Source: an uncultured Verrucomicrobiota bacterium
Lineage (GTDB): Bacteria > Verrucomicrobiota > Kiritimatiellia > RFP12 > UBA1067
Length of the DNA stretch: 64,000 nt
NCBI GenBank assembly: GCA_946055075.1
Contig: CAMGEN010000003.1
Span: 13,036-77,035, forward strand
Direction: 5' to 3'
The notes under the pieces are model-generated. The model was not told the DNA's origin. It did no database searches and was given only the letters and a program-made list of their open reading frames with translations. This document shows, one piece after another, positions 39,263-59,495 of the stretch; position 1 is the stretch's first letter, and each line of letters begins with the position of its first letter. The position numbers and the translations under genes are program-made.

Positions 39263-39336
39263 TTCCGCAACTCTTCACCCCGCACCCTGCACTCCGCACC
39301 CTGCACCCTGCACTCCGCACTCTTCACTTCTCTTAG
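39263..39336 (-). repeat. heptamer array (CACCCYG/CACTCCG units on the plus strand) with termini like those of the 44-nt element, at the mazG-ispH junction
   Basis: CTTCCGCAACTCTTC ACCCCG CACCCTG CACTCCG CACCCTG CACCCTG CACTCCG CACTCTT CACTTCT CTTAGC. Confidence 0.85.
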
Positions 39337-40117
39337 CTTTCTGCCAAAGCGCCTCCATCTCGTCAATCGTCATCTCCTTGAGCGACCTGCCCGAATCCTT
39401 CGCCGCGGCTTCGACAGTACGGAAACGTTTAGCGAATTTCGCGGTAGTGAGTTCAACGGCTGATTCCGCATCGACCTTGAGGTGACGCGCGAGGTTGGTG
39501 ACGGAAAAGATAAGATCGCCGAGCTCCTGCTTGACACGATCGGAATCCGCCGGATTCTCGCTCTTTCGGGCGGCGATCTCCGCTTCGAGCTCAGCCAGCT
39601 CCTCCTTGATCTTCGCGAGCGGACCTTCAGCATCGCGCCAGTCAAAGCCGACGCGCGAGGCCTTCTCCTGGGTGCGCTGCGCCTTGAGGAGCCCGGGCAA
39701 CGTCGGCGGAACCCCGTCCAACGCCGAATGCCGAGCCTCCTTCTTGTGCTCAAGCTGCTTGAGCTGCTCCCAGTTCTTCAACACCGTCGCGGGGTCATCC
39801 GCCTTCACGTCGCCGAACACGTGGGGATGGCGATGGACAAGCTTGTCGGCAACGCCATTGGCGACATCGTCGAAGGTAAACCGTCCCTCGTTCTCGGCCA
39901 TCACGCTCTGGAACATGATCTGAAGAAGCACGTCGCCGAGTTCCTCGATATAATTGACCTGATCATCGGGATTGTCCATCGCCGCAAGGAGTTCGTAGGT
40001 CTCTTCTAATACGCAAGGCTTAAGCGACTCCAGCGTCTGAACCCTATCCCAAGGACAACCCGTCCGAGGATTCCTCAGACGGGTCATAATCTCATGCAAC
40101 CGTTCTATTCCTGTCAT
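39275..40117 (-). CDS. mazG: nucleoside triphosphate pyrophosphohydrolase MazG
   Basis: Tandem MazG domains (EETYELLAAM..., ELGDLIFS...). The last ~17 aa (SEECGVQGAGCGVQGAG) are encoded by the heptamer array. Confidence 0.85.
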   Translation of the reverse strand: MTGIERLHEIMTRLRNPRTGCPWDRVQTLESLKPCVLEETYELLAAMDNPDDQVNYIEELGDVLLQIMFQSVMAENEGRFTFDDVANGVADKLVHRHPHVFGDVKADDPATVLKNWEQLKQLEHKKEARHSALDGVPPTLPGLLKAQRTQEKASRVGFDWRDAEGPLAKIKEELAELEAEIAARKSENPADSDRVKQELGDLIFSVTNLARHLKVDAESAVELTTAKFAKRFRTVEAAAKDSGRSLKEMTIDEMEALWQKAKRSEECGVQGAGCGVQGAG

Positions 40118-40198
40118 ATGTCACAAGTGGTAGCCAATAGTTGTAGTGGTACAGCGGAAATCGACCCTCCTTTGTACCACTACCACTTCCCACTACCA
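40118..40198. repeat. inverted GTGGTAG-type arrays forming a long hairpin with AAGGAGGG in the loop (between the HAD-like gene and mazG)
   Basis: Minus strand reads GTGGTAGTGGGAAGTGGTAGTGGTACA-AAGGAGGGTCGATTTCCGC-TGTACCACTACAACTATTGGCTACCAC. Confidence 0.8.
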
Positions 40199-40864
40199 CT
40201 AAATCCTAAGTATTTCCAACACCGTCTTCGCGGCCGGACCATTGAGCTCCTTCAAAAACTCGTCACAGCCGGTGAAATCCTGATACGCAGTGCGGGCATT
40301 CATCACCGCGACAGACCCCATTCCAGCCCTAAGCGCGGCCTTCACGCTGAACCCGGATCCGGCCACGGCTAACGCATTGTACGGACGCAGACGCGTCCGT
40401 ACGCACGCAAGCCGCCAAGCGTCCCACTTCATGCTACCATAGGTCGGCGACTCTTCCTGATAGAGCTCTACCAACGGATCAAGCAACGCGGCAAAAGTGC
40501 CGCGGACCTGCTCAACGTCGGCGCGAGTCACGATCACGACCTTCACTCCCTTCGCCGTCAGCGCCTTCACAAAGTTCACAAATGTCGCATTCAGAGGATT
40601 CATGACGGCAGCAGTGAACTCTTTACGAACCAGATCACTGAAATCTCGCGCCGCCTTAAGCGCGGTCTTCTTGGTCTTCACCACCTGGAAGTACTCCGCG
40701 AAGCAACCCTGATAACTGCCACCTGCAAAATGCCGCGCCTCAACCGCGGAATCAAAAGGAATCTCGCCGAGATCGGCGAGAAACCTTTCGGTTATCCGAG
40801 AAAGGAGCCCCGCGCCATCTATCGCCGCGAAGTCATATTCGATTATCACGCCTTTATCCGCCAT
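40199..40864 (-). CDS. HAD-like fold protein lacking the canonical DxDxT nucleophile motif
   Basis: N-terminus IIEYDFAAIDGAGL sits where HAD motif I would be. The rest resembles HAD cap and core. Confidence 0.5.
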   Translation of the reverse strand: MADKGVIIEYDFAAIDGAGLLSRITERFLADLGEIPFDSAVEARHFAGGSYQGCFAEYFQVVKTKKTALKAARDFSDLVRKEFTAAVMNPLNATFVNFVKALTAKGVKVVIVTRADVEQVRGTFAALLDPLVELYQEESPTYGSMKWDAWRLACVRTRLRPYNALAVAGSGFSVKAALRAGMGSVAVMNARTAYQDFTGCDEFLKELNGPAAKTVLEILRI

Positions 40865-40925
40865 GACAACTCCTTTCTTTTCCGTTCCATCTCAAGCTGG
40901 GCCCCTGGCCCAGATTACGCACCGC

Positions 40926-42167
40926 TTACTTAGCGATGCGTTTCTTACGGGGCTTGGGCTGCCCAATCTCCGAAAGGATCTTGCGGAAGCTACCCTTACG
41001 GACATTGAACGGCTTGCCGCCCTTGATACGCGGGAATTCGCACGCACGGATAACCGCGCTCGCGTTCTCGTCAGGACCAACGACGCCGGATACTCCCGTC
41101 ATGGCGCACTCGACAGCCTTGCGCGCACACTTCTCGATGAGCCCAAGATCCTTCTTGTTCGGAGCCGCCGCACGGGCGAAATAACCAGACTTGAAGACCT
41201 GCACCTTCTCGGCCTTGAGAAGCTCCCCGAAACGCTTACCGATGTACTGTCCGACATTGACCTTGTCAAGCCGCGGATGACCGAACGCATCAACCGGCAC
41301 CTCTTCGCCGCGCTTCTTCATCTCCTTAATGATGTCGTTGACACCCGCGCCTTCGGAAACGAAAATGTTGACGCTGTCGACCTTATCCATGATCGCGAGA
41401 AGACGCTTCGCCTCGGCCTTGAAGTCGATCTTGCACTCCGGAACGTATACGGCATGGACATCCTGACGAGCAAGAGTCTGATTGAACTCAGGAAGGAAGA
41501 GCCCCTTCGACTCCATCGACTTGAGCATCTTGCGATAATACTGCGCGGTCTTATAGGTAAGCCAACCGCAATTACGCCCCATGACCTCGTGAATCGTAAG
41601 CGCACGAGGATTCGCACTGTTCTCCTTGACGACGTTCATGAAGAACTTCGCACCCTCTTCAGCCGCCGTCCAGGCGCCGAGAGACTGCTTGATCGGATAA
41701 ACGTCGTTATCGATGGTCTTCGGAAGCCCGACGACGATCAACGGATAATTGTTCGTCGAAAGATAAGCCGCAAGATCGGCCGCCGTGGTGTTCGTGTCGT
41801 CACCGCCGATAGTATGAAGAACGTCAACCCCGTCCTTGACAAGCTGATCGGCCGCAACCTTAAGCGGATCCTCACCTTCCTTGACAAGCCCGCGCTTGAC
41901 GCAATCCTTAACATTCGTGAGCTTCACACGGCTGTTACCGATCGGAGAACCGCCATGCTTGGTGAGCACAAGCGCGTGCTTACGTACCTCGGGCGTAACC
42001 GGAATCGAATCACCCTTCAAAAGACCCATATATCCATTGACATAGCCGATCATTTCGACATTCGGCGCCTTCTTGTTGTACTCGTCAATCAGGAACCCAA
42101 TCGAACTGGAGAGACACGGAGCGAGACCGCCCGCGGTAAGAAACGCAACCTTCTTCACTTCTTTCAT
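40926..42167 (-). CDS. pfp: pyrophosphate-dependent phosphofructokinase
   Basis: 413 aa, PFK family, with FLTAGGLAPC, TIGGDDT and PKTIDND motifs. Confidence 0.85.
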   Translation of the reverse strand: MKEVKKVAFLTAGGLAPCLSSSIGFLIDEYNKKAPNVEMIGYVNGYMGLLKGDSIPVTPEVRKHALVLTKHGGSPIGNSRVKLTNVKDCVKRGLVKEGEDPLKVAADQLVKDGVDVLHTIGGDDTNTTAADLAAYLSTNNYPLIVVGLPKTIDNDVYPIKQSLGAWTAAEEGAKFFMNVVKENSANPRALTIHEVMGRNCGWLTYKTAQYYRKMLKSMESKGLFLPEFNQTLARQDVHAVYVPECKIDFKAEAKRLLAIMDKVDSVNIFVSEGAGVNDIIKEMKKRGEEVPVDAFGHPRLDKVNVGQYIGKRFGELLKAEKVQVFKSGYFARAAAPNKKDLGLIEKCARKAVECAMTGVSGVVGPDENASAVIRACEFPRIKGGKPFNVRKGSFRKILSEIGQPKPRKKRIAK

Positions 42168-42273
42168 TTTATTTTTTCTTTCACTTAATTATCAACAAAT
42201 CTTCTGCCCGCTATTCGTTGTCAACAGCAAGTAATCCTGTCACTGCTCCGCTGACAACCAATAACCTCGGCCT

Positions 42274-42732: not shown

Positions 42733-42783
42733 TGCCTTCTTTCCCTTTTTTCCAACAAAACGGCGCACATTTTATCAAATAAG

Positions 42784-43401: not shown

Positions 43402-43439
43402 GCGGCTATTATATCATAAAGTTAGAGTATTTTGTCAAA

Positions 43440-44099: not shown

Positions 44100-44101
44100 A
44101 C

Positions 44102-44140
44102 GTAGTTGAGGGGTTGAGAGGTTGAGGGGTTGAGGGGTTT
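44102..44140 (+). repeat. GGTTGAGG octamer/heptamer array between rluA and the gph-like gene
   Basis: GTAGTTGAGGGGTTGAGAGGTTGAGGGGTTGAGGGGTTT. Confidence 0.85.
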
Positions 44141-44885
44141 AGAACGGGGAGGGAGACGAGAATTCCAACCACTCGGAGGTATGTGGATGCTTGAAACGGA
44201 GACGGAGAGCGTGAAGGTAAAGGCGGTCGGATCTAGTCCCGCCGTATTTCACGTCACCGACCACCGGGTGCCCCGCCTCCGAGAAATGCACGCGAATCTG
44301 ATTTTTGCGACCGGACTTGAGGGTGACTTCGACGAGGGAATGGGGAACGGGGGATGGGGAATGAGGAACGGGGGAGAGGAGCTTCCATTCGGTGCGGGCA
44401 AATTTGGGCTTTCTAGAATCAGAGCTACCGAAAACTCTTGATCCGCCGACTGCAACCGATCTGACCTTGTAACCATCAGCGTCTTCCAACAGATAAGACT
44501 CGAAAACTCCGTATGACTTTTCAAACCCACCCTGGACCTTCGCGATATAAGTCTTCTCGGTGAGTTCGTTCCAGTTCGAACGAAAATACTCGGCGACGGC
44601 TTCAGACTTCGCGAACATCATCACACCACTGGTCTCGCGGTCAAGACGATGGACAAGCCAGACACGGTTGCGGCTCTTGAGCTGTCCCTTCCGCACATAA
44701 TCGTTGAGAACGTTCTCCGCCGTCAGCTGCGCTTCCCGCGCCGCCCGCCCAACTACCTTTGTGTGCGTGGTGAGCATCCCCGCGGGCTTGTCGATCACGA
44801 TCACATCGCGATCTTCGTATAAAACGTCAAAGGGAAGCCGATGCCTTCCCTTTGCGCTTCCTGGGAATTTATCCACCGCTCTCAA
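44139..44885 (-). CDS. RluA-family pseudouridine synthase
   Basis: Motifs HRLDRETSGVMMFAK and GRKNQIRVH. The TTG track start lies inside a heptamer array, and a GTG at 44876 is an alternative. Confidence 0.85.
   Translation of the reverse strand: MRAVDKFPGSAKGRHRLPFDVLYEDRDVIVIDKPAGMLTTHTKVVGRAAREAQLTAENVLNDYVRKGQLKSRNRVWLVHRLDRETSGVMMFAKSEAVAEYFRSNWNELTEKTYIAKVQGGFEKSYGVFESYLLEDADGYKVRSVAVGGSRVFGSSDSRKPKFARTEWKLLSPVPHSPSPVPHSLVEVTLKSGRKNQIRVHFSEAGHPVVGDVKYGGTRSDRLYLHALRLRFKHPHTSEWLEFSSPSPF
44337..44379 (+). repeat. GGGGAAT/GGGGAAC array inside rluA (in frame)
   Basis: GGGAATGGGGAACGGGGGATGGGGAATGAGGAACGGGGGAGAGG. Encodes SPVPHSPSPVPHSL. Confidence 0.85.
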
Positions 44886-44913
44886 CCTTTGACCTCAACC
44901 TTCAACCTGACGG
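44876..44913 (-). repeat. GGTTGAR array between fmt and rluA, inverted relative to 44102-44140
   Basis: Minus strand reads CCGTCAGGTTGAAGGTTGAGGTCAAAGGTTGAGAGCGG. Confidence 0.8.
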
Positions 44914-45891: not shown

Positions 45892-45922
45892 ATTGGCGGA
45901 TATTATAGCAAAAATGGCCCTG

Positions 45923-46318: not shown

Positions 46319-46328
46319 CCCTCATCTT

Positions 46329-46763
46329 CTACAGTACAAATGACGACGGTGGGACGACCGCGATCGCCTTCGAATGGAAATGCGTCAGGTCACGGGTAAA
46401 GAGATGCGAACACCCTGCCTTGACGGCTGACTGCAACTGGATGTCATCCTCGAAGTCACGGTCGTGGAAATCAGCGGCTCGCTGCATCAGTTCCTTGTCG
46501 AGCGGAACGACGTTGAATACAGCGAGGATGCCGCGGACCGCGATCATGGCCGTAGTCTCGCTTTTCAGTCGCTCGGCGACATAATGCACGTTGTTGACGG
46601 TTAAGGCCGAGATGTACCCCTCGACCAGCCCTTCCTCGCATGCCGCCCACAACTTGAGCGCATCATAATAAAACGGTTCGCGCTCAAGGAAGAAGTCAAG
46701 GATGACATTCGTGTCCAGAAAGACCCGCCGCTTGCGGTAAACGCTCTTCGGATGCTTCTTCAT
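46329..46763 (-). CDS. PIN-domain toxin (VapC-like)
   Basis: Start at MKKHPK (46763), with an ATGA overlap onto the antitoxin stop. Motifs FLDTNVILDF and DFEDDIQ. Confidence 0.8.
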   Translation of the reverse strand: MKKHPKSVYRKRRVFLDTNVILDFFLEREPFYYDALKLWAACEEGLVEGYISALTVNNVHYVAERLKSETTAMIAVRGILAVFNVVPLDKELMQRAADFHDRDFEDDIQLQSAVKAGCSHLFTRDLTHFHSKAIAVVPPSSFVL

Positions 46764-47026
46764 CTGGCGCCGAACCTTTCCATCATCCGCTCGCCCAGCA
46801 GTTCGCGATAATCCCAGTCCGCCGGAAGCGGCGCACTCGGCTTCAACAACCCCTTCAGCTGACGCGTCCTCGGCGGCAGCTCCTCCTGACGGCTCTCCGC
46901 CTCGTCCAGCATGCACACCATGGAAACGAAAAGCTTCGAAATGCTGACCTTGCGAACCGCCGAATGATGCCGCGCCCGCTCCAGCACGCTCTCGTCCATA
47001 CTCAAAGACACCCGTGTCGCCGCCAT
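46760..47026 (-). CDS. VapB-like antitoxin
   Basis: 88 aa, upstream of and overlapping the PIN gene. Similar in layout to the second antitoxin at 62229. Confidence 0.65.
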   Translation of the reverse strand: MAATRVSLSMDESVLERARHHSAVRKVSISKLFVSMVCMLDEAESRQEELPPRTRQLKGLLKPSAPLPADWDYRELLGERMMERFGAR

Positions 47027-47039
47027 CTCAAACTCCGTT

Positions 47040-47404: not shown

Positions 47405-48760
47405 TCACCGCACGGTGATGAGTTCGGACCAGTTGGTGGTGGAACGCTTCGATAGCAACGAGCGCTTCATCTTCCATTCACGGACGATGCCTTCCGAGGC
47501 AGAGAACACCTTGTCGCGTCCGTACCGCGCGTTGAGCGCGTCGATCGCCTGATAGAGCTTCGAGGATTCACGCGGCGCGGATTCGGAAAAGAGATCGAGC
47601 TGCTGCGTCGCGCCGACATGTTCTAGTCCGAAGAAGACAACTCCCGACTTGCGATACCGCGCACCTGGAACCCAGAGCGCCTCGACCCCGTCACTGATCG
47701 CCTTGAGCATCTTGTTGGTCGCGTCCGTCGGCTCAGGAAACATCACGGTCTCGCTCACGAAGTTCGCCTCCCACCCTTCGTCACTTTCAAACATGCCGGG
47801 CTTCGCGAGCTGCGCGTAGATGTTGCAGCCGGACGCGAGGAGTCCGTGCTTGCGCAGCTTCACCGCCGCCTGGGAAGCGAAGGAGGCGACGGACTCCGAA
47901 AGCTCTTCAAGCGTCGTCACGGGACGCCCGAACGAACGCGAACACGAAACCGAATCCGGGTCCGCATCATAATCGCGATCTTGACTGCAGCCGACGCCAC
48001 GAAGCTCGGTCGCGGTCCTGAGCAGCGTCACGCCGCCGATCCTGCGCACCACGTCGTCGGGCGCGTCACGGAGATCCTTCGCACTCGCGATCCGATCGGC
48101 CATTAGCTTGTTGACAAGCCTACGTCCGACCCCCCACACCTCGCCCACTGGCAGCCGCGCAAGGATGTCCGTCGAATCTTCCGGGAGGATGTAGACGCCA
48201 CCAGGCAGTTTCTTGCCGATGTGATTCGCGATCTTGGCGAGCGTCTTCGTCGGCGCAAACCCAACCCCGCACGGGATCCCCGTCCACCGCAGTATCTTCT
48301 TCCTCAGCCTTCTCCCGTATTCTAAAAGCTTTTCCCTCCGCAACTCTTCACTCTTACCTCTTAACTCTTCACTTCTATCCGCCGGCTCCGCCGGCGGATA
48401 GATAAACGCCTCGTCAATCGAATACTGTTCGACATCCAGCGCCTCCTCACGGAGAATGGAGACTATCCGTCGGGACATGTCGCCGTAGAGTTCGTAATTC
48501 GACGAGCGGAAGATCAGCTCTCCAGTCTTCTCGCGGTCCTTCAGCTGGAAGTAAGGAGTGCCGCGCGGAATTCCGAGCGCCTTGAACTCGTTCGACATCG
48601 CGACGCAACAGCCGTCGTTGTTCGAAAGCACGGCAACCGGCTTCCCGACGAGCTTGCGGTCAAACACCCGCTCGCAGGAAACGTAGAAATTGTTACCGTC
48701 AACAAGTCCGATCACAGGGAATGGGGAATGGGGAATAGGGATAGATTCATTTTCCGCCAT
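47405..48760 (-). CDS. umuC: Y-family translesion DNA polymerase V catalytic subunit
   Basis: Motifs VDGNNFYVSCERVFD, YSIDEAF and PTKTLAKIANH. Carries heptamer-encoded segments at the N-terminus and after IDEAF. Confidence 0.9.
   Translation of the reverse strand: MAENESIPIPHSPFPVIGLVDGNNFYVSCERVFDRKLVGKPVAVLSNNDGCCVAMSNEFKALGIPRGTPYFQLKDREKTGELIFRSSNYELYGDMSRRIVSILREEALDVEQYSIDEAFIYPPAEPADRSEELRGKSEELRREKLLEYGRRLRKKILRWTGIPCGVGFAPTKTLAKIANHIGKKLPGGVYILPEDSTDILARLPVGEVWGVGRRLVNKLMADRIASAKDLRDAPDDVVRRIGGVTLLRTATELRGVGCSQDRDYDADPDSVSCSRSFGRPVTTLEELSESVASFASQAAVKLRKHGLLASGCNIYAQLAKPGMFESDEGWEANFVSETVMFPEPTDATNKMLKAISDGVEALWVPGARYRKSGVVFFGLEHVGATQQLDLFSESAPRESSKLYQAIDALNARYGRDKVFSASEGIVREWKMKRSLLSKRSTTNWSELITVR
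48334..48380 (-). repeat. 44-47-nt GTGAAGA-type element, in-frame copy in umuC
   Basis: Plus strand reads CCCTCCGCAACTCTTCACTCTTACCTCTTAACTCTTCACTTCTATCC. Encodes DRSEELRGKSEELRRE. Confidence 0.9.
48717..48744 (+). repeat. GGGGAAT array in the umuC 5' end
   Basis: GGGAATGGGGAATGGGGAATAGGGATAG. Encodes IPIPHSPFP. Confidence 0.85.
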
Positions 48761-49193
48761 TTTTAAACCTATGAATTACTGCCGTAACCATCCCAAAATA
48801 ATCCAACTCATGACCATCGTCAATTCGAATTACCGGATACTTATCATTACCAGGTTCCAGCACATATCTTTTTTTAACAGCCTTCTTCTTCCCATTCCCC
48901 ATTCCCAATTCCCCATTCCCTTCAACGCGCAAGCGTTTGACCGTAAATTCGCCGTCCACGGACGCAATGATGATATCACCGTCGACAGGTGTAAGCGAAC
49001 GATCCACCACCAGCAGATCGCCGGGATTGATGCCGGCATCGATCATCGAGTCGCCTTCTACACGGACGAAGTACGTCGCTGCGGGACGCTTCACCAAGAG
49101 CGCATTCAAGTCGAGCGGCGGTTCCAGATACTGCTCCGCCGGCGACGGAAATCCCGCCACCACCGATCCCGCGACTCTCGCCTTACCGGACAT
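48747..49193 (-). CDS. umuD: UmuD (S24 LexA-like self-cleaving peptidase)
   Basis: AG-FPSPAEQY cleavage region, GDSM serine and FTVKRL lysine. Overlaps umuC by 14 nt. Confidence 0.85.
   Translation of the reverse strand: MSGKARVAGSVVAGFPSPAEQYLEPPLDLNALLVKRPAATYFVRVEGDSMIDAGINPGDLLVVDRSLTPVDGDIIIASVDGEFTVKRLRVEGNGELGMGNGKKKAVKKRYVLEPGNDKYPVIRIDDGHELDYFGMVTAVIHRFKNGGK
48891..48920 (-). repeat. GGGGAAT array in umuD, inverted relative to 48717-48744
   Basis: Plus strand reads CCCATTCCCCATTCCCAATTCCCCATTCCC. Encodes EGNGELGMGNG. Confidence 0.85.
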
Positions 49194-49195
49194 TC

Positions 49196-49234
49196 ACCAC
49201 CTCTTTCTCGACCTCGACCTATAACCTGACACCT
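49196..49234 (-). repeat. GGTCGAG-type array between the radical SAM gene and umuD
   Basis: Minus strand reads GGTGTCAGGTTATAGGTCGAGGTCGAGAAAGAGGTGGTG. Confidence 0.7.
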
Positions 49235-50135
49235 ACTTCACCGTCCCGTGATCAGCGGACATGTTCTCGCCGAGCAGCGCCAGCTTCGGATCGCTCGCCT
49301 CATAGCCCTGAATCCATCCGTTCTCAAATCCGAAATCCGCCGCGGCCTCGGTGACGCTCTCGTATTCCTCCTTCGTCACGGACCGATTGAACGGCGGAGT
49401 CTCCAGAGCCTTGTACGCCGGAGTATATTGCGCCATAATTGAAACCGGAATCTCGCTCGAAAGTTCCGTCGCGAGCCACGCAAGATTCTCGATCGCCTCA
49501 TCCGCATGTCCCGGCAGCACTAACACTCTAACAATTAACCTCCGCAACTCTTCACTCTTCACTCTTACTTCTTCACTTCTCTCAAACGCCCACTTTACCG
49601 CGGCGCGGGAGGCCTCGACATAACCGGGGGCGGAACTCGCCTTGATCGCGGTCTCGTTTTTGGAGTAACGGAGATCGAAAAGCGCCCAATCACAGAGATC
49701 ACTGTATTCCTCCAATGTCTCAACGCGTTCATAGCCAGACGAATTCCAGACGAACGGAAGTCTGACACCTTCCTTGAAGAGCGGCTCGACCGCCTCGCGG
49801 ATATACGGCAGATACGGCGTCGGCGAAACAAGATTCCAGTTCTCCACCTTGTCCTTCACCGCCAGCTCGCGGAAGATCGCCGTCAGTTCGGGAATCGTCT
49901 TGTCAACGCCTTCACCCTTCCAGCTCCACGGCGAATTCTGACAGTAAAGACACTTCATCGTGCAACGAGAGAAGAACACGCAGCCGCTACCACGCTCACC
50001 GGTGATCGGCGGTTCCTCCCCGAAATGCGGCCCCCACCGGAATACCCGCGGCAAATCCGCCGCGCCGCAGTAACCGGGACGCTTGCCGCACTTTCTCGGA
50101 CACAGCTCGCAAATATCGAAACGGCAACTGCTCAC
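49233..50135 (-). CDS. radical SAM protein, PflX-like (pyruvate formate-lyase activase homologue)
   Basis: CTMKCLYCQN motif, 300 aa, GTG start. Contains an in-frame copy of the 44-nt element. Confidence 0.75.
   Translation of the reverse strand: MSSCRFDICELCPRKCGKRPGYCGAADLPRVFRWGPHFGEEPPITGERGSGCVFFSRCTMKCLYCQNSPWSWKGEGVDKTIPELTAIFRELAVKDKVENWNLVSPTPYLPYIREAVEPLFKEGVRLPFVWNSSGYERVETLEEYSDLCDWALFDLRYSKNETAIKASSAPGYVEASRAAVKWAFERSEEVRVKSEELRRLIVRVLVLPGHADEAIENLAWLATELSSEIPVSIMAQYTPAYKALETPPFNRSVTKEEYESVTEAAADFGFENGWIQGYEASDPKLALLGENMSADHGTVK
49537..49583 (-). repeat. 44-nt GTGAAGA-type element, in-frame copy in the radical SAM gene
   Basis: Plus strand reads AACCTCCGCAACTCTTCACTCTTCACTCTTACTTCTTCACTTCTCTC. 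Encodes ERSEEVRVKSEELRRL. Confidence 0.9.
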
Positions 50136-50224: not shown

Positions 50225-51511
50225 TTATATCCTGTCCTTTTCCAGAAAACGAAGGCGAGCCAGAAGGATGACAAGCGCACCAATGAGATAGAAGACGGAA
50301 AGCGAGGACATCGAAAGCGCCATATTACCGAAAACCTTCGCGAGCCAGGGGAGCACCGTGGAGGATAGCGAACCGACAAGGAAAGCGATGCACATCATGA
50401 TGCCGACGCCGGAAGCATGATAACGCGGATTGACCACATCAAAGAACGATGCAATAAAGTTCGAGTCGTAGACGCCGCGGAAGAATCCGAAGCCGAGCAT
50501 CGCGACACAACACGCGATGAAGGTCGGCGCGTTCGCCATCCAGATGATAAACGGAACCGAAAGCGCAAGTCCAGCCACGCCGAGCTCCAGACGGATTCCT
50601 GGACGGCGCTTCGCAACCTTGTCTCCGAAACGCGATCCAAGCATCACGCCGACGATCGCGCCTACATAATGCCAGACGACGGCATGAAACCCGTGCCAGG
50701 TCTTGAGGAATATGTTCTTACCCGCATCTAGATCCATGTAATGACCCTGCAGGAACGCCGGCATCCAGTTCTTGAAGCCGATGTCAACATAGATCATCAT
50801 CGCCAAGCCCAAAATCACGCAGATCGCTGTTGGCTTGGAGAAGACCGACGCGACCGCTTCGCGGATCGTCGGTTTTCCAGGTTGAAGGTCGGAGGCTGAA
50901 GGTTGAACGGCGGATTCGACCGGTTTGGTGTTCTTAAGGAACACGGAGAGCAGAACCGCCCAGCCAATACCGATCGCGCCGAAGGTCCAGAACGGAACAC
51001 GCCAGTGTTCGCCGCCCTGTCCCGCCACGAAACCAGCGAGCGTTCCGCAGCCGATGATGCCGAGGTAGAGCCCGAGCTGGAGGATGGACATCGCCGTCGC
51101 GCGCGAATCCTTATGAAGCTGCGACACCAGCGAGGTGGCCGAGGGATAGTAGAAGGTCTGGCCGAGTCCGTTAAGGACGCCGTACGTGACGACCAGCAGG
51201 CCGACGGATGCCACGAAGCCAGAGAGGAAGATGCCGAGACAGAACACCGCGACGCCGATCGTCACCATCCACTTGCGGCTGAAGAGGTCCGCGGTGATTC
51301 CGGCGATCGGCACGCAGATGCCGTACATCATCGCGAACACCGTTCCCACGACGCCGATCGCCACCTTCGCATCCTCCGGATCCGTGGTCGGCAACAACGT
51401 CGCACACATTGCCCCGAGGGACGGCCCGTACAACTGACGAGTACCCTGTTGAAGAAAGAACGCAACCCACAGCAGGATCAACGCCGTCCACTTGTAATCA
51501 AGTTTTTTCAT
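50225..51511 (-). CDS. MFS transporter (anion/sugar-acid symporter-like)
   Basis: About 12 TM segments. Start at MKKLDYKW (51511), 9 nt downstream of TATAAT. Confidence 0.8.
   Translation of the reverse strand: MKKLDYKWTALILLWVAFFLQQGTRQLYGPSLGAMCATLLPTTDPEDAKVAIGVVGTVFAMMYGICVPIAGITADLFSRKWMVTIGVAVFCLGIFLSGFVASVGLLVVTYGVLNGLGQTFYYPSATSLVSQLHKDSRATAMSILQLGLYLGIIGCGTLAGFVAGQGGEHWRVPFWTFGAIGIGWAVLLSVFLKNTKPVESAVQPSASDLQPGKPTIREAVASVFSKPTAICVILGLAMMIYVDIGFKNWMPAFLQGHYMDLDAGKNIFLKTWHGFHAVVWHYVGAIVGVMLGSRFGDKVAKRRPGIRLELGVAGLALSVPFIIWMANAPTFIACCVAMLGFGFFRGVYDSNFIASFFDVVNPRYHASGVGIMMCIAFLVGSLSSTVLPWLAKVFGNMALSMSSLSVFYLIGALVILLARLRFLEKDRI
50877..50910 (+). repeat. GGTTGAA/GGTCGGA array inside the MFS gene (central loop)
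   Basis: CCAGGTTGAAGGTCGGAGGCTGAAGGTTGAACGG. Encodes VQPSASDLQPG. Confidence 0.75.
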
Positions 51512-51516
51512 ACTAC

Positions 51517-51537
51517 GGGTATTATAACATATTACCC
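51517..51537. promoter_or_regulatory. palindrome GGGTAATATGTTATAATACCC overlapping the extended -10 (TGTTATAAT) of the MFS promoter
   Basis: Read on the minus strand. The arms GGGTAATAT and ATAATACCC differ at one position. Confidence 0.5.
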
Positions 51538-51623
51538 TCACCACAACGACATACTCCGTGGATATCGCATCGTCGCGGCTTCGGCAGAAGTCGTCTCAGT
51601 CACCGCTCGAACTCTTGATTTCT

Positions 51624-51667
51624 TCTCGCACCCCTGGTATCGCTTCGCTTGGGGGATATGCGTAACC
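51624..51667 (+). repeat. structured extragenic element, copy 2
   Basis: TCTCGCACCCCTG-gt-ATCGCTTCGC-tt-GGGGGATATGCGTAACC. Same orientation as copy 1. Confidence 0.75.
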
Positions 51668-51713: not shown

Positions 51714-53723
51714 CTAACGACGGATGAAAGAGATATTACGGAGACGGATGTGCTCGGCGGTGGCGGTGGAGCGGAGATTAAGCGCTACGAGTTCGGTATG
51801 CGCGAGATCGAACGCGGTATCGAAGGCAAATTCGATCGGATGCCAGGCGTCATCACAGGGTAACGTCACCGGTTTGCCATGATAACGCGTCTCGTTGGAA
51901 AACAGAAGGAGCTCGAGCTGCGCATTGGAATCACCGGACAGCTTCACTTCGCCGGAAAAAACCCAGTGTCCGTTCCCCACCGACTTGAAACCCTCGGTCA
52001 CCACCGCCTGTACGCCGGCGTTCTTCTCACACTGGACAAGGTGATAGACCGCCGCGCCCTTCTCGTCCCGCTCCGTCGCCTCAAACTTTGTCATCCACGA
52101 GGGGAAGCGCGACCATACAGAATGCCGCGGCAGTTTCTCCGCGACGAGATTCGCATCCGCGACCTGCACCGCAGCGGGTTTGCCGCGGAACCTCCAACCG
52201 ACACTGACAACATCTGCGAACGCTGGAATTGCCGGCTCAGATTTCTCACCAGTGATCGTCAGCTCGAGTTCACCCGGCTCGCCCTGAACCATCCAGTCCG
52301 TTGGCGACGTCAGCCGCCTCCCGTCGTACCAACAGTTCGCAACCTTCACCACGAAATTCGACGAGACCAGCCATTTCTTCGGATCGTTGCGCACGATGAC
52401 CACCGGACCGAGCGACTTGCCTTTGTTCCTCCACCCGCTCACGCCGACCGCATGCGGGAACACGCAATCCTCGAAGACGAACGTCTTGGGCAGCGTGCCC
52501 ATGTTCTGTCCGCGGAAAAGCCAGCTGATATTCCCGCAATCAACCGCGGAGAGCCGCTTGAAGACGAAGTCGTTCTCCTGATGCTTCAGGTCCTGCGGAC
52601 CCGGCTCGCGCTTCTGCGCGGCGCCGTTCATCTCATTCCACTTGTTGTTACGCCGCAGCACTCCGTTGTATTCGTTGCCGACCAATCCCTCGTCCGCGCG
52701 GAAGACATTGATGTCCTCCATTAGCACGCGCATGTTGGTGCTCTGCGGAAACACCGCCTTGCAGGTAGTGCCGATCGTGACGTCACGATAAACTGCATCC
52801 CTTACGCCGCTTACCACGAGCGCATTGTCTCCGACATAAACCCATGAATGTTCAACCAGCGGATTCTTTCCGCCGTTGGTGAATCCGTCTGAACACATCA
52901 TCGTGGCAAGCAGCTTGACGTTGCGGAAAACCGCACCATCGGCCCAGCAGGTAATGTTGAACGTACGCGCATCGACGAGCTTCACGCCTTCCACCTTCGT
53001 GCCAATCCCGCCAATAGCGACAAGCCCCCGTCTCGTGTTCTGAGTCTGGTCATAACGGAAGATATCACTCATCGGATCGAGAATCATTCCGCGTCCGTGA
53101 AGATACATTCCCTTCGCCTTCAGCCTGAGCCGCGCATTCAACACCGCACCCGGCGCGATGTAGATCTCCTTGACGTCATCGGCGACTGGTAGCACTCCAT
53201 CCCTATCCGGAGCCTCAAGCCAGCCGTCGACGAAAAGACAACCTGGCTTATCCTTCGCCGGGACATCCGTTTCCGGCGCATCGGCGAAGACCGAAAGAAT
53301 CGTCTTATCGTAATCATTGATCCGCACTCCGAAATAATCCGGTTTATCCAGCCATACCGAAATTACGCCGTCTGTGAACGAATGACGGAACCGTTTCGCG
53401 GACGGAAAGACGTTATAGCTTTCGACATCTCCGTTGACCGCAATATCAACGCGCACCGGACCACCCTCGAAGGCGAACTCGCAGAAACGCCGGTTCACGT
53501 CCCCACCGTAAGTGCGATCGCGGAGCGCGTCCTTCTCGCAGTGATTCCACACTACAAGCGGCTTCGTCACCGAATCCTGCGTCACGGACACGCGATAGAA
53601 ATCGTCACGTTCGATCGCGGACGGATAATCCGGATAAACGACTAGCGCGTTTTGTGCCTGCGCACAAAACGCGGAAAGCCAGAAGGACAAAGCAAGAAGA
53701 AAAAAACGAGGAATATTCATCAT
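51714..53723 (-). CDS. secreted right-handed beta-helix (pectin-lyase-fold) glycoside hydrolase-like protein with C-terminal beta-sandwich region
   Basis: Signal peptide MMNIPRFFLLALSFWLSAFCAQA. Beta-helix-like repeats (VYVGDNALVVSG, DGFTNGG). The family assignment is tentative. Confidence 0.55.
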   Translation of the reverse strand: MMNIPRFFLLALSFWLSAFCAQAQNALVVYPDYPSAIERDDFYRVSVTQDSVTKPLVVWNHCEKDALRDRTYGGDVNRRFCEFAFEGGPVRVDIAVNGDVESYNVFPSAKRFRHSFTDGVISVWLDKPDYFGVRINDYDKTILSVFADAPETDVPAKDKPGCLFVDGWLEAPDRDGVLPVADDVKEIYIAPGAVLNARLRLKAKGMYLHGRGMILDPMSDIFRYDQTQNTRRGLVAIGGIGTKVEGVKLVDARTFNITCWADGAVFRNVKLLATMMCSDGFTNGGKNPLVEHSWVYVGDNALVVSGVRDAVYRDVTIGTTCKAVFPQSTNMRVLMEDINVFRADEGLVGNEYNGVLRRNNKWNEMNGAAQKREPGPQDLKHQENDFVFKRLSAVDCGNISWLFRGQNMGTLPKTFVFEDCVFPHAVGVSGWRNKGKSLGPVVIVRNDPKKWLVSSNFVVKVANCWYDGRRLTSPTDWMVQGEPGELELTITGEKSEPAIPAFADVVSVGWRFRGKPAAVQVADANLVAEKLPRHSVWSRFPSWMTKFEATERDEKGAAVYHLVQCEKNAGVQAVVTEGFKSVGNGHWVFSGEVKLSGDSNAQLELLLFSNETRYHGKPVTLPCDDAWHPIEFAFDTAFDLAHTELVALNLRSTATAEHIRLRNISFIRR

Positions 53724-53768
53724 CCACAATATCGGACCGATGGGGCGATGGCGCCCCACCTCCAATTG

Positions 53769-54473: not shown

Positions 54474-54474
54474 C

Positions 54475-55938: not shown

Positions 55939-55942
55939 AACG

Positions 55943-55976
55943 CTTCAGTATTCACTATTCACTGTTCACTTGACAG
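55943..55976 (-). repeat. GTGAATA array upstream of the GH13 gene
   Basis: Plus strand reads CTTCAGTATTCACTATTCACTGTTCACTTGACAG. Confidence 0.75.
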
Positions 55977-55986
55977 ACAGTGGTCC

Positions 55987-57309
55987 TTAGGACCAGCGCC
56001 GGTCATTGGCCCATTCCTTGTCCCACTCCTTCGTGGAAGCCCACGGCGCGGGAAATTCCTTGCACGCCTGCTTCTTGATGAGCTTTTCGTTGAGCTCGTC
56101 AATACCGAGTCCGGGTCTGGTCGGAACCTTGATGAATCCCCCCTCGTACGAAAGCGCGGGCTTCACGAGATCTCCCCACCACGGGACATCGACGGAATGG
56201 AGTTCGAGGGCCATGAAGTTTCGGGTCGCCGCGGCAACATGGACGGCCGCCATGCAGGCGATCGGAGATTCGGCCATGTGGATGTTCATCTGCACGCCGT
56301 AGTCCTCGGCCATGTCGCCGACCTTCTTCGTCTCCATCATGCCGCCGCAGGTGAGGAGGTCGGGATGAACGACCGCGAGCGCATGCGACTCAAGGAGCGG
56401 CTTGAAATCCTCTTTGAGATAGATGTCCTCGCCGGTCCCGAGCGGAGTCGTGGTCGCGGCGTGAAGCTCGCGCCACTGCTCAACGTTGCGCCACGGAAGG
56501 ACGTCCTCGGCCCAAGAGAGATGATATTTCTCGAGACGGCGGAGGAGATTGACGCAGTCCTCGTAAGGGATATGTCCGAGATGATCGATCGCGATCGGCA
56601 CCTCCCAGCCGATGACATCACGGACGTCGGACATGTATTTCTCGAGATAGTCGAGCCCCTTCTCCGTGATATGGATACCGGTGTGTCCGTGCGCGGTCGT
56701 GAAAAGCTCGAACGCCTCGCCGCGCATCGAGCGCGGATCGATCGAACCGTGCGGCGTCTGGACGACGTGCTTCATCTTACGCATGTAGTCGAGATAACCG
56801 AGCGGCGCGATCAGCGCGTCCTTGACGTTCGTCAGGAGTTCGATGCCGAGATCCATCTTGAGGAAGGTGAAGCCCATCGCCATACGCTCCTTGAGCGCCT
56901 TGCCCATATCGCGTCCGCCGCCTTCAGAATCGGTGTCGCAGTAGCAGCGGATCTCGTCGCGCCACTTGCCGCCAAGGAGCTGCCAGCAGGGAACGCCCCA
57001 GGCCTTGCCCGCGAGGTCCATGCACGCGAGTTCAACCGCACAGACGCCGCCGGCCTGACGCGAATCGCCGCCGAACTGCTTGATCCGGCGGAAGATCTTC
57101 TCGACGTTGCACGGATTCTCGCCGAGGATGCGGCTCTTGAGCATCGCGGCGTAGGTGCGTGAAGAGGCGTCACGGACTTCACCGTAACCGACGAGTCCCT
57201 GGTTGGTATAGAGCTTGAGGAGCGTGCAACGCTTCGGCGCGCCGTCGATGTCGGCAAAGCGCATGTCGGTGATCTTGAGCGTCGCGGGATTGATCTTGTT
57301 GATTCGCAT
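55987..57309 (-). CDS. enolase-superfamily sugar-acid dehydratase (mandelate racemase/galactonate-mannonate dehydratase-like)
   Basis: Start at MRINKINPATLKITDMRF (57309). MR/MLE N- and C-terminal domains. Confidence 0.8.
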   Translation of the reverse strand: MRINKINPATLKITDMRFADIDGAPKRCTLLKLYTNQGLVGYGEVRDASSRTYAAMLKSRILGENPCNVEKIFRRIKQFGGDSRQAGGVCAVELACMDLAGKAWGVPCWQLLGGKWRDEIRCYCDTDSEGGGRDMGKALKERMAMGFTFLKMDLGIELLTNVKDALIAPLGYLDYMRKMKHVVQTPHGSIDPRSMRGEAFELFTTAHGHTGIHITEKGLDYLEKYMSDVRDVIGWEVPIAIDHLGHIPYEDCVNLLRRLEKYHLSWAEDVLPWRNVEQWRELHAATTTPLGTGEDIYLKEDFKPLLESHALAVVHPDLLTCGGMMETKKVGDMAEDYGVQMNIHMAESPIACMAAVHVAAATRNFMALELHSVDVPWWGDLVKPALSYEGGFIKVPTRPGLGIDELNEKLIKKQACKEFPAPWASTKEWDKEWANDRRWS

Positions 57310-57314
57310 AATAA

Positions 57315-57347
57315 CAGTTGAAGTATGAAGTTGAAGTTGAAGAGCGG
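57315..57347 (+). repeat. AGTTGAA array between the GH10 and dehydratase genes (pyrimidine strand in the mRNA)
   Basis: CAGTTGAAGTATGAAGTTGAAGTTGAAGAGCGG. Confidence 0.8.
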
Positions 57348-57356
57348 ATGAACTCT

Positions 57357-59444
57357 TTACTTGAAGGTGAGTTCGTTCTTCGGATCCATGAGCATGAGCG
57401 AGCACCACCAGTTGCCAGAGCTGCCGCAACGGGTCTTGAACTCGATCGTATTCTCGCCCTCCTTGAGCTGGATCTTGACGCGCTTCCACTCGTCCGTAGT
57501 ACCGCTGAAGCTGCGAATATAACCGCCGTTAACGGTGAGCTCGCCGAACCAGTCGTTCATCTCGCCGATTTCGAGTTGCATATCCCGCGGCGCGACGACA
57601 TTGAAAGTCAGCGAGACGTTCTCGACGCCGTCCGCATTAAGCACGGGAACATAACCCGTGGGACCGTTCAGCTGGAAACGTCCGTCAACATCCGTCTTGA
57701 GCGGGATAACGCCCTTCTTGCAGGTTAGCGTCGCCTGCTCGACGAGGCGCGCTCCGCGCGGAAGCGCCGTGCCGACATTGTCGACGTACGCATCATTGAG
57801 CGTTTCCTTAATTCCGTCGCCTTCAAGATGGATGACTCGCCAGAAAACGTGTCCGCTCTGCGGATCCTTCCACGAGAGACGGTACTTGCCACGGAAGCCG
57901 CGGAACTTCACGAACGCCGCGCACTCGTCGCCACCTTCGGCCGCGACCTTGAGATTCGTCTTCCACTCATGGTTGATGAGCTGATCGAGCGCCTCGTAGG
58001 CGGGCTTCTTCTTCATGTCCGTGGTGAAGAGTCCGGAGACGAGCGGCTCGCCCTTCACGCCTCCGCCGTCGACGGTGTTCCACCAGGTGATGCCCATCAG
58101 GGACTTGTGGGAGAACCACTTGCGGTAGATATTACGCGTAAGCACGGCCTGGATCATACGGCTTCTGGCATCCGATCCCGGCGAGGTGATGGTTATCTCG
58201 GAGACGTGGATGGGCTTGCCGGTCTTCGCCATCATGTCGAGGCGATCCTGGATCGTCCTGGGCGTGCCGACCCAGTTGATGTTCGTCTCGCCCTGCGCGA
58301 GCCGTGCGCAGTCATTGGTGTTGAAGATGTGCATCTGGCAGCCGACGATATCGATCTTCGCGCCCTGCTGCTCGAGGTCCTTGACCTGGGCGAGGAAGTC
58401 GTCACAGATGTTATAGTCGTTAATGTTGAGCTTCGCCCACGCTGGGAACGCCTCCTTGGCGTCGAGGAGCGCATGGAGCGGATAGTCGCCGGGCATGAGT
58501 CCGTAGAGCGAGAACCACACCGGGAGCCCCGTGCGCGACTTGCGGTAACGCGACCAGTCGCGCGAACTCTCGTTCACGACGTCCCAGCTGTCCACGAGTT
58601 CTCCGTAGTCCTTAGCGACATCGAAGACGCGCTTGCGGAAGATGCGGCGCATCGCCTGCGTGAACTCTGGGAGCTTTTCGCCGACTTCCTTTTCGGTCAC
58701 GGCATCATAGACGCGGTTCCAGCGCGACTTCCACGAACCGTTCCAGCCGCCGTCCCAGTTGTTGACATCGTCAACAGACTCGCCGAAACGCGGAATGCCG
58801 AGGTGCTCGATGTAGCGCTTCTCGTTCTCGGGACAGTAGTCAGTGTAGATCCAGGTCGGCTTGGCGCTACCCCAGATGAGGATGTGTCCGTGAACCCTCA
58901 CGCCCTTCTCCTTGCAGAAGGTCACGATCGGTCCAGGCGCAGGACGGCGCCAGAAAGGATGCGCCATCGCCTCATCGCGCGTAAGCGAATTCCAGAAGTA
59001 GGGAGTGTCCTCGAAATCGCCGAACGCGCGGAGGCGTCCCGGCACCGGCTCATAGCAGTTCCAGTAGTACGCGACAGTCGCAGAATTAAAGATGCCGCCG
59101 CGTCCGTAGCTCGCCTTGTAGACATCGTTGTATTCCTTCTTCCCGAGCTGGTCGAAGTTGAAGATGTGGGCGCCGAACTTGAACTCGTGGTCGAGCTGTT
59201 CGACCGTTACTTCGGTTCCCTGCGAGACCGGCAGCGCCACTACGGCGTCCGCCTTGCGGTTCGCCTCGATGTCAGCATCGATCTTCGCCTGTTCGGCGTC
59301 ATTCCAGATCTCCCAGTACTTCTCGCTCATCACCGACGGGTCGATCTTGAAGTCCGCCGAAGCCAGCGCCGTGAAAGCTACGAACAGTGAGCAGTGTGCA
59401 ATGATCAGTTGCGGAATCTTGAATTTCGTCTTGTCAGCTTTCAT
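57357..59444 (-). CDS. secreted GH10-like glycoside hydrolase with C-terminal beta-sandwich extension
   Basis: Motifs GHILIWG, WDVVNES, NDYN, GCQMH and HVSEITIT (nucleophile Glu). N-terminal signal/anchor. Confidence 0.8.
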   Translation of the reverse strand: MKADKTKFKIPQLIIAHCSLFVAFTALASADFKIDPSVMSEKYWEIWNDAEQAKIDADIEANRKADAVVALPVSQGTEVTVEQLDHEFKFGAHIFNFDQLGKKEYNDVYKASYGRGGIFNSATVAYYWNCYEPVPGRLRAFGDFEDTPYFWNSLTRDEAMAHPFWRRPAPGPIVTFCKEKGVRVHGHILIWGSAKPTWIYTDYCPENEKRYIEHLGIPRFGESVDDVNNWDGGWNGSWKSRWNRVYDAVTEKEVGEKLPEFTQAMRRIFRKRVFDVAKDYGELVDSWDVVNESSRDWSRYRKSRTGLPVWFSLYGLMPGDYPLHALLDAKEAFPAWAKLNINDYNICDDFLAQVKDLEQQGAKIDIVGCQMHIFNTNDCARLAQGETNINWVGTPRTIQDRLDMMAKTGKPIHVSEITITSPGSDARSRMIQAVLTRNIYRKWFSHKSLMGITWWNTVDGGGVKGEPLVSGLFTTDMKKKPAYEALDQLINHEWKTNLKVAAEGGDECAAFVKFRGFRGKYRLSWKDPQSGHVFWRVIHLEGDGIKETLNDAYVDNVGTALPRGARLVEQATLTCKKGVIPLKTDVDGRFQLNGPTGYVPVLNADGVENVSLTFNVVAPRDMQLEIGEMNDWFGELTVNGGYIRSFSGTTDEWKRVKIQLKEGENTIEFKTRCGSSGNWWCSLMLMDPKNELTFK

Positions 59445-59451
59445 TAGAATT

Positions 59452-59495
59452 ACCTCCTCAACTCTTAACTCTTCACTCTTACTTCTTCACTTATC
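59452..59495 (-). repeat. 44-nt GTGAAGA-type element, intergenic copy upstream of the GH10 gene
   Basis: Plus strand reads ACCTCCTCAACTCTTAACTCTTCACTCTTACTTCTTCACTTATC. It differs at 3 of 44 positions from 49538-49581. Its GAGGAGG end serves as the SD of the GH10 gene. Confidence 0.9.

Follow-up and report, generated by a model that had tools for sequence, protein, structure and literature searches.

A 44-nt heptamer-built element within and between unrelated genes of a Kiritimatiellia bacterium belongs to a widespread family of arms

A stretch of 64,000 nucleotides from an uncultured Kiritimatiellia bacterium of the Verrucomicrobiota (contig CAMGEN010000003.1; hereafter the window, meaning the whole stretch) carries a near-identical 44-nt element, built from 7-nt units, in an intergenic spacer as well as inside a radical SAM gene and umuC, which raises the question of how one sequence came to lie both between and inside unrelated genes. 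The original prediction held that the element had been copied recently, by mobility, gene conversion or templated insertion, rather than having arisen by independent slippage. Here, we report that the element is best filed as an in-frame palindromic insertion sequence built from heptamer arrays that crosses phyla, at least two of them, in gut bacteria.

The window holds four copies, A to D (Table 1), which share one orientation and fall within 20 kb. The host genes of all four are on the minus strand; thus, the sense form of the element is the purine-rich reverse complement. By direct comparison, A and B differ at three of 44 positions, as had been predicted, and a search of the window with the 44-mer allowing up to three mismatches returned these two sites only (0.00 expected from shuffled sequences). 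C (47 nt as first delimited) can be aligned to B in register, the two differing at four internal positions and at the ends, and the termini of D are AAGTGAAG and GTGAAGAGTTGCGGAAG, which flank seven GGTGCRG-type units, in agreement with the kinship proposed for both. In the sense orientation, the window copies read AAGTGAAG, then AGTGAAG-like units (AAGTAAG, AGTTAAG or AGTGAAG), then AGTTG[C/A]GGA[G/A]G. The proposed division into one intergenic and two in-frame copies holds for A, B and C; to it must be added that D is partly coding, because it encodes the last ~23 codons of MazG with the TGA stop within the array, and is at the same time the leader of ispH, the ATG of which is at 39258-39260. 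The inner end GGAGG of A is 8 nt upstream of the GH10 ATG, in the position of a ribosome-binding site, and together A and D put GGAGG/GGAAG 7-8 nt ahead of start codons. Copy C is preceded by the hairpin TCCGCCGGC-GGA-GCCGGCGGA and, in the protein, lies after the SIDEAF catalytic strand of UmuC and before the next helix; an AlphaFold model of UmuC (20-sequence alignment) had a mean pLDDT of 55, which is too low for use, and gave at most a hint that the insert extends the helix.

The element is part of a family that extends far beyond the window. With a pattern of 25 nt that spans the outer half of copies A-C (AAGTGAAGARKTAAGAGKKAAGAGT), we found at least 124 matches in metagenome contigs, representing at least 119 loci with distinct flanks. 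The arm at these loci is 32-43 nt long and sharply bounded, AAGTGAAG AGTKAAG AGTGAAG AGTGAAG AAT TTGCTACCGCC; among the listed loci, there was no consensus just upstream of AAGTGAAG, and a downstream consensus, GAAGAATTTGCTNCCGC, went beyond what the pattern imposed. The outer ~30 nt of the window copies are identical to this arm at 27-29 positions, followed by TTGC in common and then by the inner end of the Planctomycetes-Verrucomicrobia-Chlamydiae (PVC) type. BLAST placed further arms in replicons of Segatella hominis and Phocaeicola massiliensis. Because the same non-periodic, sharply bounded arm is present at at least 119 loci, the copies descend from, or were templated by, a common sequence. 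Thus, the claim of copying rather than independent slippage stands, and the possibility that the copies are unique to the window is contradicted.

In a scan of genomes (one per species) with a pattern of the two termini, seven of 16 matches were true arrays, from Verrucomicrobia, Bacteroidetes and other metagenome-assembled genomes (MAGs), two of them holding identical sequence; the remaining nine were chance matches in ordinary coding sequence and were rejected. The inner end of the arm is AGTTG[C/A]GGA[G/A]G in PVC-type genomes, to which, judging by the named sources of UmuC and GH10 homologues, that of this Kiritimatiellia-like bacterium belongs, and AATTTGCTACCGCC in Bacteroidota. Arms ending AGTTGAGGARG (PVC-type) are present in Verrucomicrobia MAGs, and this inner end also occurs in the syntenic locus of another species (L003), within a full element at the counterpart of window position ~53.7 kb. 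Five viral contigs also carry arms. In two contigs classified as phage (L148, 5635-5659; L149, 985-1009), the arm is in frame in a reverse-transcriptase open reading frame (ORF) with group II intron/Drt2-like matches.

The hosts are many and unrelated. ORFs of at least 150 codons hold 71 of the 119 listed arms, all in one open frame that reads SEELRVKSEE, an in-frame fraction that is biased by the stop-removing variant imposed by the pattern; 14 of the 119 are antisense within ORFs. Hosts named by NCBIfam include chorismate synthase, MiaB, CTP synthase, arginyl-tRNA synthetase, LacZ-type beta-galactosidase and ABC transporter proteins, and, as read from translations, many copies lie directly ahead of the apparent C-terminal sorting domain of cargo proteins of the type IX secretion system (T9SS) type, one of which matches a T9SS-dependent endonuclease family weakly, below the cut-off. 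The T9SS-type hosts together with a contig GC content that is mostly 0.40-0.55 point to Bacteroidota. In many such proteins, for example those of loci L029, L037, L063 and L065, the arm lies at one relative position immediately before the apparent sorting domain (...SEELRVKSEEFATATEWYxLxGRK...); this constant position in T9SS-type cargo proteins could reflect a target preference or the shuffling of a module of domain plus arm.

How the arm can be read through is evident from its sequence. A run of pure (AGTGAAG)n meets TGA whichever of the three sense frames is taken, and the reverse arm is free of stops in every frame. In genes, copies depart from the pure run by one or two bases at precisely the would-be in-frame TGA, leaving one open frame that encodes a charged, SEELRVKSEE-like peptide. 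Accordingly, the element is tolerated within surface loops, at the ends of proteins and between genes. Another 34 arms that had not been selected with the metagenome pattern have the default form AAGTGAAG AGTGAAG AGTGAAG AGTGAAG AAT with a fixed four units; all five of these in the sense orientation of an ORF have a G-to-T change that abolishes the in-frame TGA, and the pure arms are outside ORFs or antisense. That intergenic copy A came from a coding-type source is only modestly supported by its irregular units, unselected intergenic arms being usually pure in this small sample.

Arms also occur as inverted pairs. An inverted partner was present 10-130 nt downstream of the arm in 36 of the 119 listed loci and upstream in none, and among close inverted pairs of all heptamer families in 1.1 Mb, the purine-rich arm came first in 38 and second in 4. 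A full element thus consists of an arm, a variable loop and an inverted arm, 65-190 nt in total with the purine-rich arm first, and its terminal inverted repeats are the arms of ~32-43 nt. The 26 full elements measured are 65-186 nt long and have folding energies between about -18 and -74 kcal/mol; the loops of full elements often contain an inner inverted repeat, TTTGCTACCGCC/GGCGGTAGCAAA. Solo arms are commoner than pairs, and the four copies in the window are solo arms. Two assemblies of the same locus (L054, region of 7753-7777; L047, region of 3005-3029) differ in that the former has an extra palindromic segment of ~33 nt nested in the TTTGCTACC part of the element, a hint that there is another small family of insertions.

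Altogether, we consider the chances about even that the 44-nt element is a solo arm, or half-site, of small non-autonomous palindromic insertion sequences with AGTGAAG-type heptamer arms, composed of the fixed outer end AAGTGAAG, about four heptamers and the inner end. In such a scheme, copies would have arrived long ago by insertion of the palindromic element or its half through an activity acting in trans, and selection would have kept those that lay in a permissive loop, at the end of a protein or in a spacer; in the spacers, the inner GGAGG may have been co-opted as a Shine-Dalgarno site (A and D). Gene-conversion-like exchange within arrays and between nearby arrays, inverted partners included, would then homogenise them, retaining the termini, swapping the cores and keeping A, B and C alike.

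The age of the copies and the way in which they change were read from syntenic loci of the same species (L001, L002 and L021; 95.6-99.97% identical, L001 being essentially the window sequence) and of the other species (L003; ~84% identical). Copy A is identical in L021; a GH10 search for its orthologous site returned same-species (L021) or non-syntenic (L022) loci only, and two loci with RraA homologues (L026 and L027) are not syntenic with it. L003 has copy B at the orthologous site, of equal length and with no indel, 35 of 44 positions being identical (8-9 differences), and the segment has the length of the native one in distant radical SAM homologues. In radical SAM homologues of other lineages, inserts of 30-90 amino acids occupy this site, which is therefore a permissive loop. 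Copy C has the termini found in umuC alleles of strains and species with amino-acid identities as low as 81%; among UmuC orthologues with identities as low as 70%, this site holds arrays of quite different units in either orientation, and close orthologues lacking the segment exist. Thus, B and C are old, and the idea that the copying was recent did not survive the comparison.

Copy C is absent from L002 and L003. The filled and empty forms of umuC differ by 54 nt (about 48336-48389) with a replaced 13-nt flank, and this is the sole large indel in ~22 kb of within-species comparison and the only polymorphism between empty and filled sites, for which the original prediction had advised a search. 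It sits within a stretch of ~150 nt with raised divergence, along which L002 agrees with the L003 allele; this argues for allelic recombination and against a fresh insertion. Judged from these alignments, the presence or absence of C points to recombination of old filled and empty alleles across species boundaries.

Array length did not change within the species over the ~22 kb compared, and lengths are mostly kept even at ~84% identity. What changes is the core. The umuC allele of L023 (95% amino-acid identity) has the array length and termini of the window allele (GATAGAAG...TGCGGAG) with a GGAACAG/GGAATAT core; 10 of 28 core positions differ between the two, as opposed to 5.6% divergence gene-wide, and seven of the ten differences fall at two of the seven unit phases and two at a third. 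Similarly, the array at 55944 differs from L003 at 13 of 39 positions, nearly all at phases 2, 4 and 6, copy B shows periodic replacement relative to L003, both with unchanged length, and the arrays in the RluA-type gene and umuD have a different heptamer family at the orthologous site in L003. Arrays are thus long-lived, length-stable and not slippage-prone. Moreover, A and B are closer to each other (3 differences) than B is to its orthologue, C is nearer to B, 1.2 kb away, than to the L023 umuC allele, and the core in L023 is similar to the GGGAATG arrays in umuD, the neighbouring gene. These numbers are small, and the similarities suggest exchange between neighbouring copies. Homogenisation from unit to unit and from array to array that spares the ends would explain the constant termini and variable cores of D and the umuC alleles. 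We conclude that, among the processes originally proposed, gene conversion is the best description of how the window copies evolve, while recent mobility within the window is unsupported.

The element is one among several families of 6-8-nt tandem arrays between 38 and 64 kb, at least six of them with 7-nt units; AGTGAAG, GGGTGCR, GGGAATG, AGGTTGA/GTTGAGG, AGTGAAT and GTGGTA are represented. Nine strict period-7 arrays were found in the window versus 0.4 expected from shuffles, with other periods at background, all nine within 38-64 kb and none in 1-34 kb. Arrays fill short spacers beside start and stop codons and are in frame in ispH (twice), the RluA-type gene, umuD, umuC, the radical SAM gene and an MFS transporter gene. 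There are three close inverted array pairs, the G/A-rich arm being first in each; I1 and I3 are predicted to fold into long stems. In I1, the partner of the array at 39141-39171 is the core of D, with 84% complementarity, and both arms of I3 differ in L003, which has another unit family at one site and no array at the other.

Table 1. Copies of the element, other arrays and inverted array pairs in the window (strand as given; a point marks features assigned to neither strand).
Feature	Position	Strand	Context
Copy A	59452-59495	-	Solo arm in 53-nt spacer, RraA-like gene (59498-60253) / GH10 gene (57357-59444)
Copy B	49538-49581	-	In frame in radical SAM gene (49233-50135), residues ~186-200, peptide ERSEEVRVKSEELRR
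Copy C	48334-48380	-	In frame in umuC (47405-48760), peptide RSEELRGKSEELRRE
Copy D	39263-39336	-	Family termini, GGTGCRG core; mazG end and ispH leader
AGTTGAGA/GTTGAGG array	38782-38816	+	Inside ispH; contains AAGTTGCGGG, resembling the family inner terminus
GGGTGCR array	39141-39171	+	In frame in ispH; 6-amino-acid insertion relative to E. coli IspH
GTGGTA-type inverted array pair	40126-40200	.	HAD-mazG spacer, 9-nt loop
GTTGAGGG array	44105-44139	+	RluA-HAD spacer, immediately 5' of HAD start codon; orthologous in L003, equal length
GGGAAYG array	44336-44375	+	In frame in RluA-type gene (44139-44885); CACTAGG family at L003 site
AGGTTGA array	44882-44908	-	Fmt-RluA spacer; kept in L003
GGGAATG array	48716-48741	+	umuD/umuC junction; absent in L003
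GGGAATG array	48891-48921	-	In frame in umuD (GNGELGMGNG); GGTTGAR array at L003 site
AGGTTGA-type array	50879-50907	+	In frame in MFS transporter gene; kept in L003
AGTGAAT array	55944-55970	-	MR_MLE-amylase spacer; AAGAATT array of equal length in L003
AGTTGAAG array	57316-57342	+	Between GH10 stop and following start codon; identical in L003
GGGTGCR array, 6 units	63622-63664	-	5' end of ORF 62856-63647
Inverted pair I1	39141-39171 / 39271-39301	.	Encloses 99 nt with ispH start; z -3.3
Inverted pair I2	40126-40158 / 40168-40200	.	HAD-mazG spacer
Inverted pair I3	48716-48741 / 48896-48921	.	Encloses 154 nt, umuD end and umuC start; z -4.6

The array-free part of the window, 1-34 kb, has a GC content of 0.57-0.66 and ordinary housekeeping content (hydrogenase, AdhE, biotin, thiamine and GuaA genes); the array-bearing part, 38-64 kb, has a GC content of 0.46-0.60. 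Recently acquired DNA, an assembly chimera and regional heterogeneity of the array-forming process are possible reasons for this split. Array density also differs greatly between lineages: the first 8 kb of a locus from an uncultured bacterium (L017, 1-8000; GC content 0.64) contains at least 17 heptamer arrays of at least eight unit families, in and between ORFs, and by the same criterion a 20-kb Kiritimatiellia locus (L024) contains none. A segment of 120 nt (57280-57400) that holds the AGTTGAAG array is ~98% identical to L003 in surroundings that average ~84%.

Several observations weigh against an origin of the copies as palindromic insertion sequences. As noted originally, the window encodes no transposase or integrase; a Pfam scan of its ~55 ORFs found neither these nor a Y1 transposase such as a transposase associated with repetitive extragenic palindromic (REP) sequences (RAYT), nor a reverse transcriptase, and thus no candidate for an enzyme acting in trans. 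No insertion event was caught, the loci compared including no filled/empty pair with clean junctions. Target-site duplications, which the original prediction had proposed to look for, were not found at 32 full elements: 18 had none and 14 had matches of 1-3 nt of varying length and sequence, some right ends among the 14 being placed imprecisely. Nor was there a strong target motif, only a weakly T-rich 5' flank and a 3' flank that is A-rich by eye at the best-defined ends. The loops of full elements are unrelated in sequence, which would be uncommon if all had been copied from a single master element. I1 and I3 enclose native gene sequence (the 5' end of ispH and the 3' end of umuD, respectively), and therefore their arms did not arrive as a single unit. 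Many other heptamer families coexist in the window and in L017; this speaks more for a general process that generates heptamers than for a single transposable family. Finally, the link between the inner ends of Bacteroidota and PVC arms rests on the short TTGC match, and the bias in the in-frame fraction has been mentioned. The unrelated loops, the pairs around native sequence, the many unit families and the array-free 34 kb are not explained by insertion of a palindromic element.

A dedicated strand-specific activity working in 7-nt steps at nicks or breaks, or an ssDNA transposase specific for hairpins, might write and rewrite the arms and their sister families. Active in some Bacteroidota and PVC lineages, it would turn them into a selfish element of a new, cross-phylum class, by which the surface loops of essential proteins are remodelled. 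The strict purine-first polarity of the pairs and the absence of arrays from the GC-rich 34 kb would be putative footprints of such an activity, which we regard as a tentative possibility, on balance unlikely.

It is unlikely that the element is instead a functional cis-element under selection, a purine-rich leader with a Shine-Dalgarno site or an mRNA arm whose pairing around the ispH and umuC starts couples or throttles translation, with the coding copies being incidental. Such a role would fit the position of GGAGG/GGAAG in A and D, the array-GAGGAGG-ATG order in other genomes, the arrays in many short spacers immediately 5' of start codons and the predicted folding of I1 and I3 around start codons, and translational regulation was proposed by MacGregor for TAACTGA repeats (PMC4679880). 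Against it, B and C are deep within genes, arrays in both orientations precede starts, some of them pyrimidine-rich and lacking a Shine-Dalgarno site, and orthologous arrays freely exchange unit families. Moreover, in 16 full elements within ORFs, the sense transcript was predicted to be more stable than the antisense transcript in 6 and less stable in 10, giving no signal of selection at the RNA level.

We think it rather unlikely that the history is purely local, one regional array having been duplicated or converted into its neighbours with the likeness elsewhere being coincidental. The clustering and common orientation of the four copies within 20 kb fit this, as do the closeness of A to B relative to the orthologue of B, that of C to B relative to the L023 allele, and the likeness of the L023 core to the umuD arrays. 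However, the same ends demonstrably recur across a widespread family, and the termini of B and C are older than the species splits; local conversion belongs to the palindromic insertion explanation and is not an alternative origin.

Ordinary heptanucleotide simple-sequence repeats (SSRs), arising by slippage in place with convergence on a favoured unit and selection against stops, would explain the over-representation of period-7 arrays of many units in the window and other loci, the excess of heptamer SSRs known in bacteria (PMC4692102; PMC4679880) and the stop-removing changes exactly where selection would place them. We nevertheless hold this improbable: the length is fixed at four units with the same non-periodic ends at at least 119 unrelated loci in several phyla, unit number does not vary within the species, array length is kept at ~84% identity, intergenic A has the same irregular units as coding B, and inverted partners are strictly purine-first.

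No more probable in our judgement is templated repeat addition at DNA ends, by which an activity resembling reverse transcriptase, telomerase or a primase-polymerase would extend 3' ends at breaks with the purine-rich arm, the joining of two extended ends giving arm, filler and inverted arm. It would explain the sharp outer boundary together with the variable inner end and unrelated loops, as well as the lack of target-site duplications and the strict purine-first polarity (36:0 and 38:4), but the polarity is also explained if the full palindrome is simply the mobile unit. Furthermore, solo arms exceed pairs, pairs around native gene sequence do not fit a single break, and no such enzyme is among the ~55 ORFs. 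We know of no enzyme that writes into bacterial chromosomes by templated addition.

An ancestral homologous peptide module common to the host proteins, an explanation conceivable for the T9SS-type cargo proteins in which an arm at one relative position could spread by domain shuffling, is extremely improbable given the unrelated folds of the hosts (radical SAM, Y-family polymerase, MazG, AroC, PyrG, ArgS and MiaB), a DNA identity of 41/44 that is far above the need of a 14-amino-acid peptide, the intergenic position of one window copy and many metagenome copies, and the lack of the segment in close orthologues.

Among described systems, the Rickettsia palindromic elements (RPEs) are the nearest in behaviour, being small palindromic repeats that lie between genes and, with unusual frequency, in frame in unrelated housekeeping genes, to which they add a conserved peptide at positions that tolerate it (PMC10969869). 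The family described here is likewise small, palindromic and non-autonomous; the RPE palindrome of roughly 100-150 nt is matched by the arm-loop-inverted arm of 36 of the 119 listed loci (65-186 nt), and the RPE residence in frame by that in the radical SAM, UmuC and MazG proteins and in 71 metagenome ORFs, in one frame. Unlike RPEs, it resides in gut and rumen Bacteroidota and PVC bacteria and has heptamer-built arms, unconserved loops, common solo arms and cores exchanged between unit families. By analogy, the element may work like RPEs; we claim no membership, and from the taxa and arm sequence homology is unlikely.

Descriptively, the element belongs to the dispersed heptamer repeats. These include cyanobacterial short tandemly repeated repetitive (STRR) sequences and Xanthomonas GGGAATC and Nostoc GGGGAYT arrays, with an excess of heptamer SSRs noted in bacteria (PMC4692102, citing Mrazek 2007); further examples are the TAACTGA repeats of Beggiatoaceae (Beggiatoa) (PMC4679880) and a four-heptamer element of Geobacter metallireducens with 49 inter- and intragenic copies (PMC2700814). 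In common with these, the arrays here have 7-nt tandem units, strong strand asymmetry and many copies per genome, lie mostly in short spacers by start and stop codons with some in ORFs, form occasional inverted pairs and have altered sequence at orthologous sites (PMC4692102, PMC4679880, PMC2700814). They differ in having fixed non-periodic ends, a fixed length, the same ends across phyla and, among the sampled loci, a predominantly in-frame position in genes. Of the two hallmarks of heptanucleotide SSRs and STRRs, we observed the period-7 excess and no variation in unit number between close strains.

REPs and their inverted doublets (REPINs), which depend on a RAYT of the Y1 type, occur as singlets and doublets with fixed polarity and no target-site duplication and are non-autonomous (PMC3116915, PMC3733652). 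The present family resembles REPINs in all these respects, its doublets also forming long hairpins. However, REPs are extragenic whereas most sampled copies here are inside ORFs, REPs are tagged by GTAG/CGTC whereas here the outer end is AAGTGAAG and the flanks have a weak T/A preference, and there is no RAYT gene among the ~55 ORFs. With MITEs (miniature transposable elements with inverted repeats), the family shares terminal inverted repeats, a length of ~65-190 nt, the lack of transposase coding and occasional in-frame fusions; it differs in that target-site duplications were not found, the internal sequence is not conserved and no parent insertion sequence is known, none with the same ends having been seen in the window or noticed in the retrieved loci. 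By their defining properties, the element is not a MITE, a REP, a phase-variable SSR or a CRISPR. A phase-variable contingency locus was rejected because the in-gene arrays are degenerate and in frame in every strain compared, with no length change that shifts the frame, and a CRISPR array because the copies are 1.2-10 kb apart in or between ordinary genes. As to intragenic invertons, in which a recombinase flips a segment between inverted repeats, neither a recombinase nor a flipped form of the segments within I1 and I3 was seen, no search aimed at them having been made.

The whole window had no match to Rfam families at the gathering score. Literature on the arm sequence, the encoded peptides, repeats in Kiritimatiellae and MITEs in Bacteroidetes yielded no description of the family, which is not proof of novelty. 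Elhai is said to have described small dispersed repeats in Nostoc heptamer arrays.

If the element is what we propose, in-frame selfish palindromes would not be a curiosity of Rickettsia but common in abundant gut and rumen bacteria, with aroC, pyrG, argS, miaB, ispH and umuC among the genes concerned. For protein evolution, the elements would mark permissive loops and add charged segments; for annotation, they would account for odd low-complexity peptides such as SEELRVKSEE and LFTLHSSL, with spurious ORF extension being possible. The family would also tie the excess of heptamer repeats to intragenic palindromic repeats, both poorly explained, and its defined sequence, being searchable, could serve in tracking down the enzyme responsible.

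Other features of the window concern its surroundings. The spacer between the MFS transporter gene (50225-51544) and ORF 51714-53765 is, at ~51625-51640, a hotspot for defence islands that is empty in the window; L002 has 3.7 kb with a DNA methylase and GmrSD/HNH there, and L021, at the same point, 3.1 kb with a DNA methylase and a HindVP-type restriction enzyme. Synteny with L021 stops at 60355, and the next 2 kb (to 62000) have the lowest GC content of the window (0.46) and contain small ORFs with no family matches. Genes for PIN-domain proteins are present at 46329-46916 and 62480-62884.

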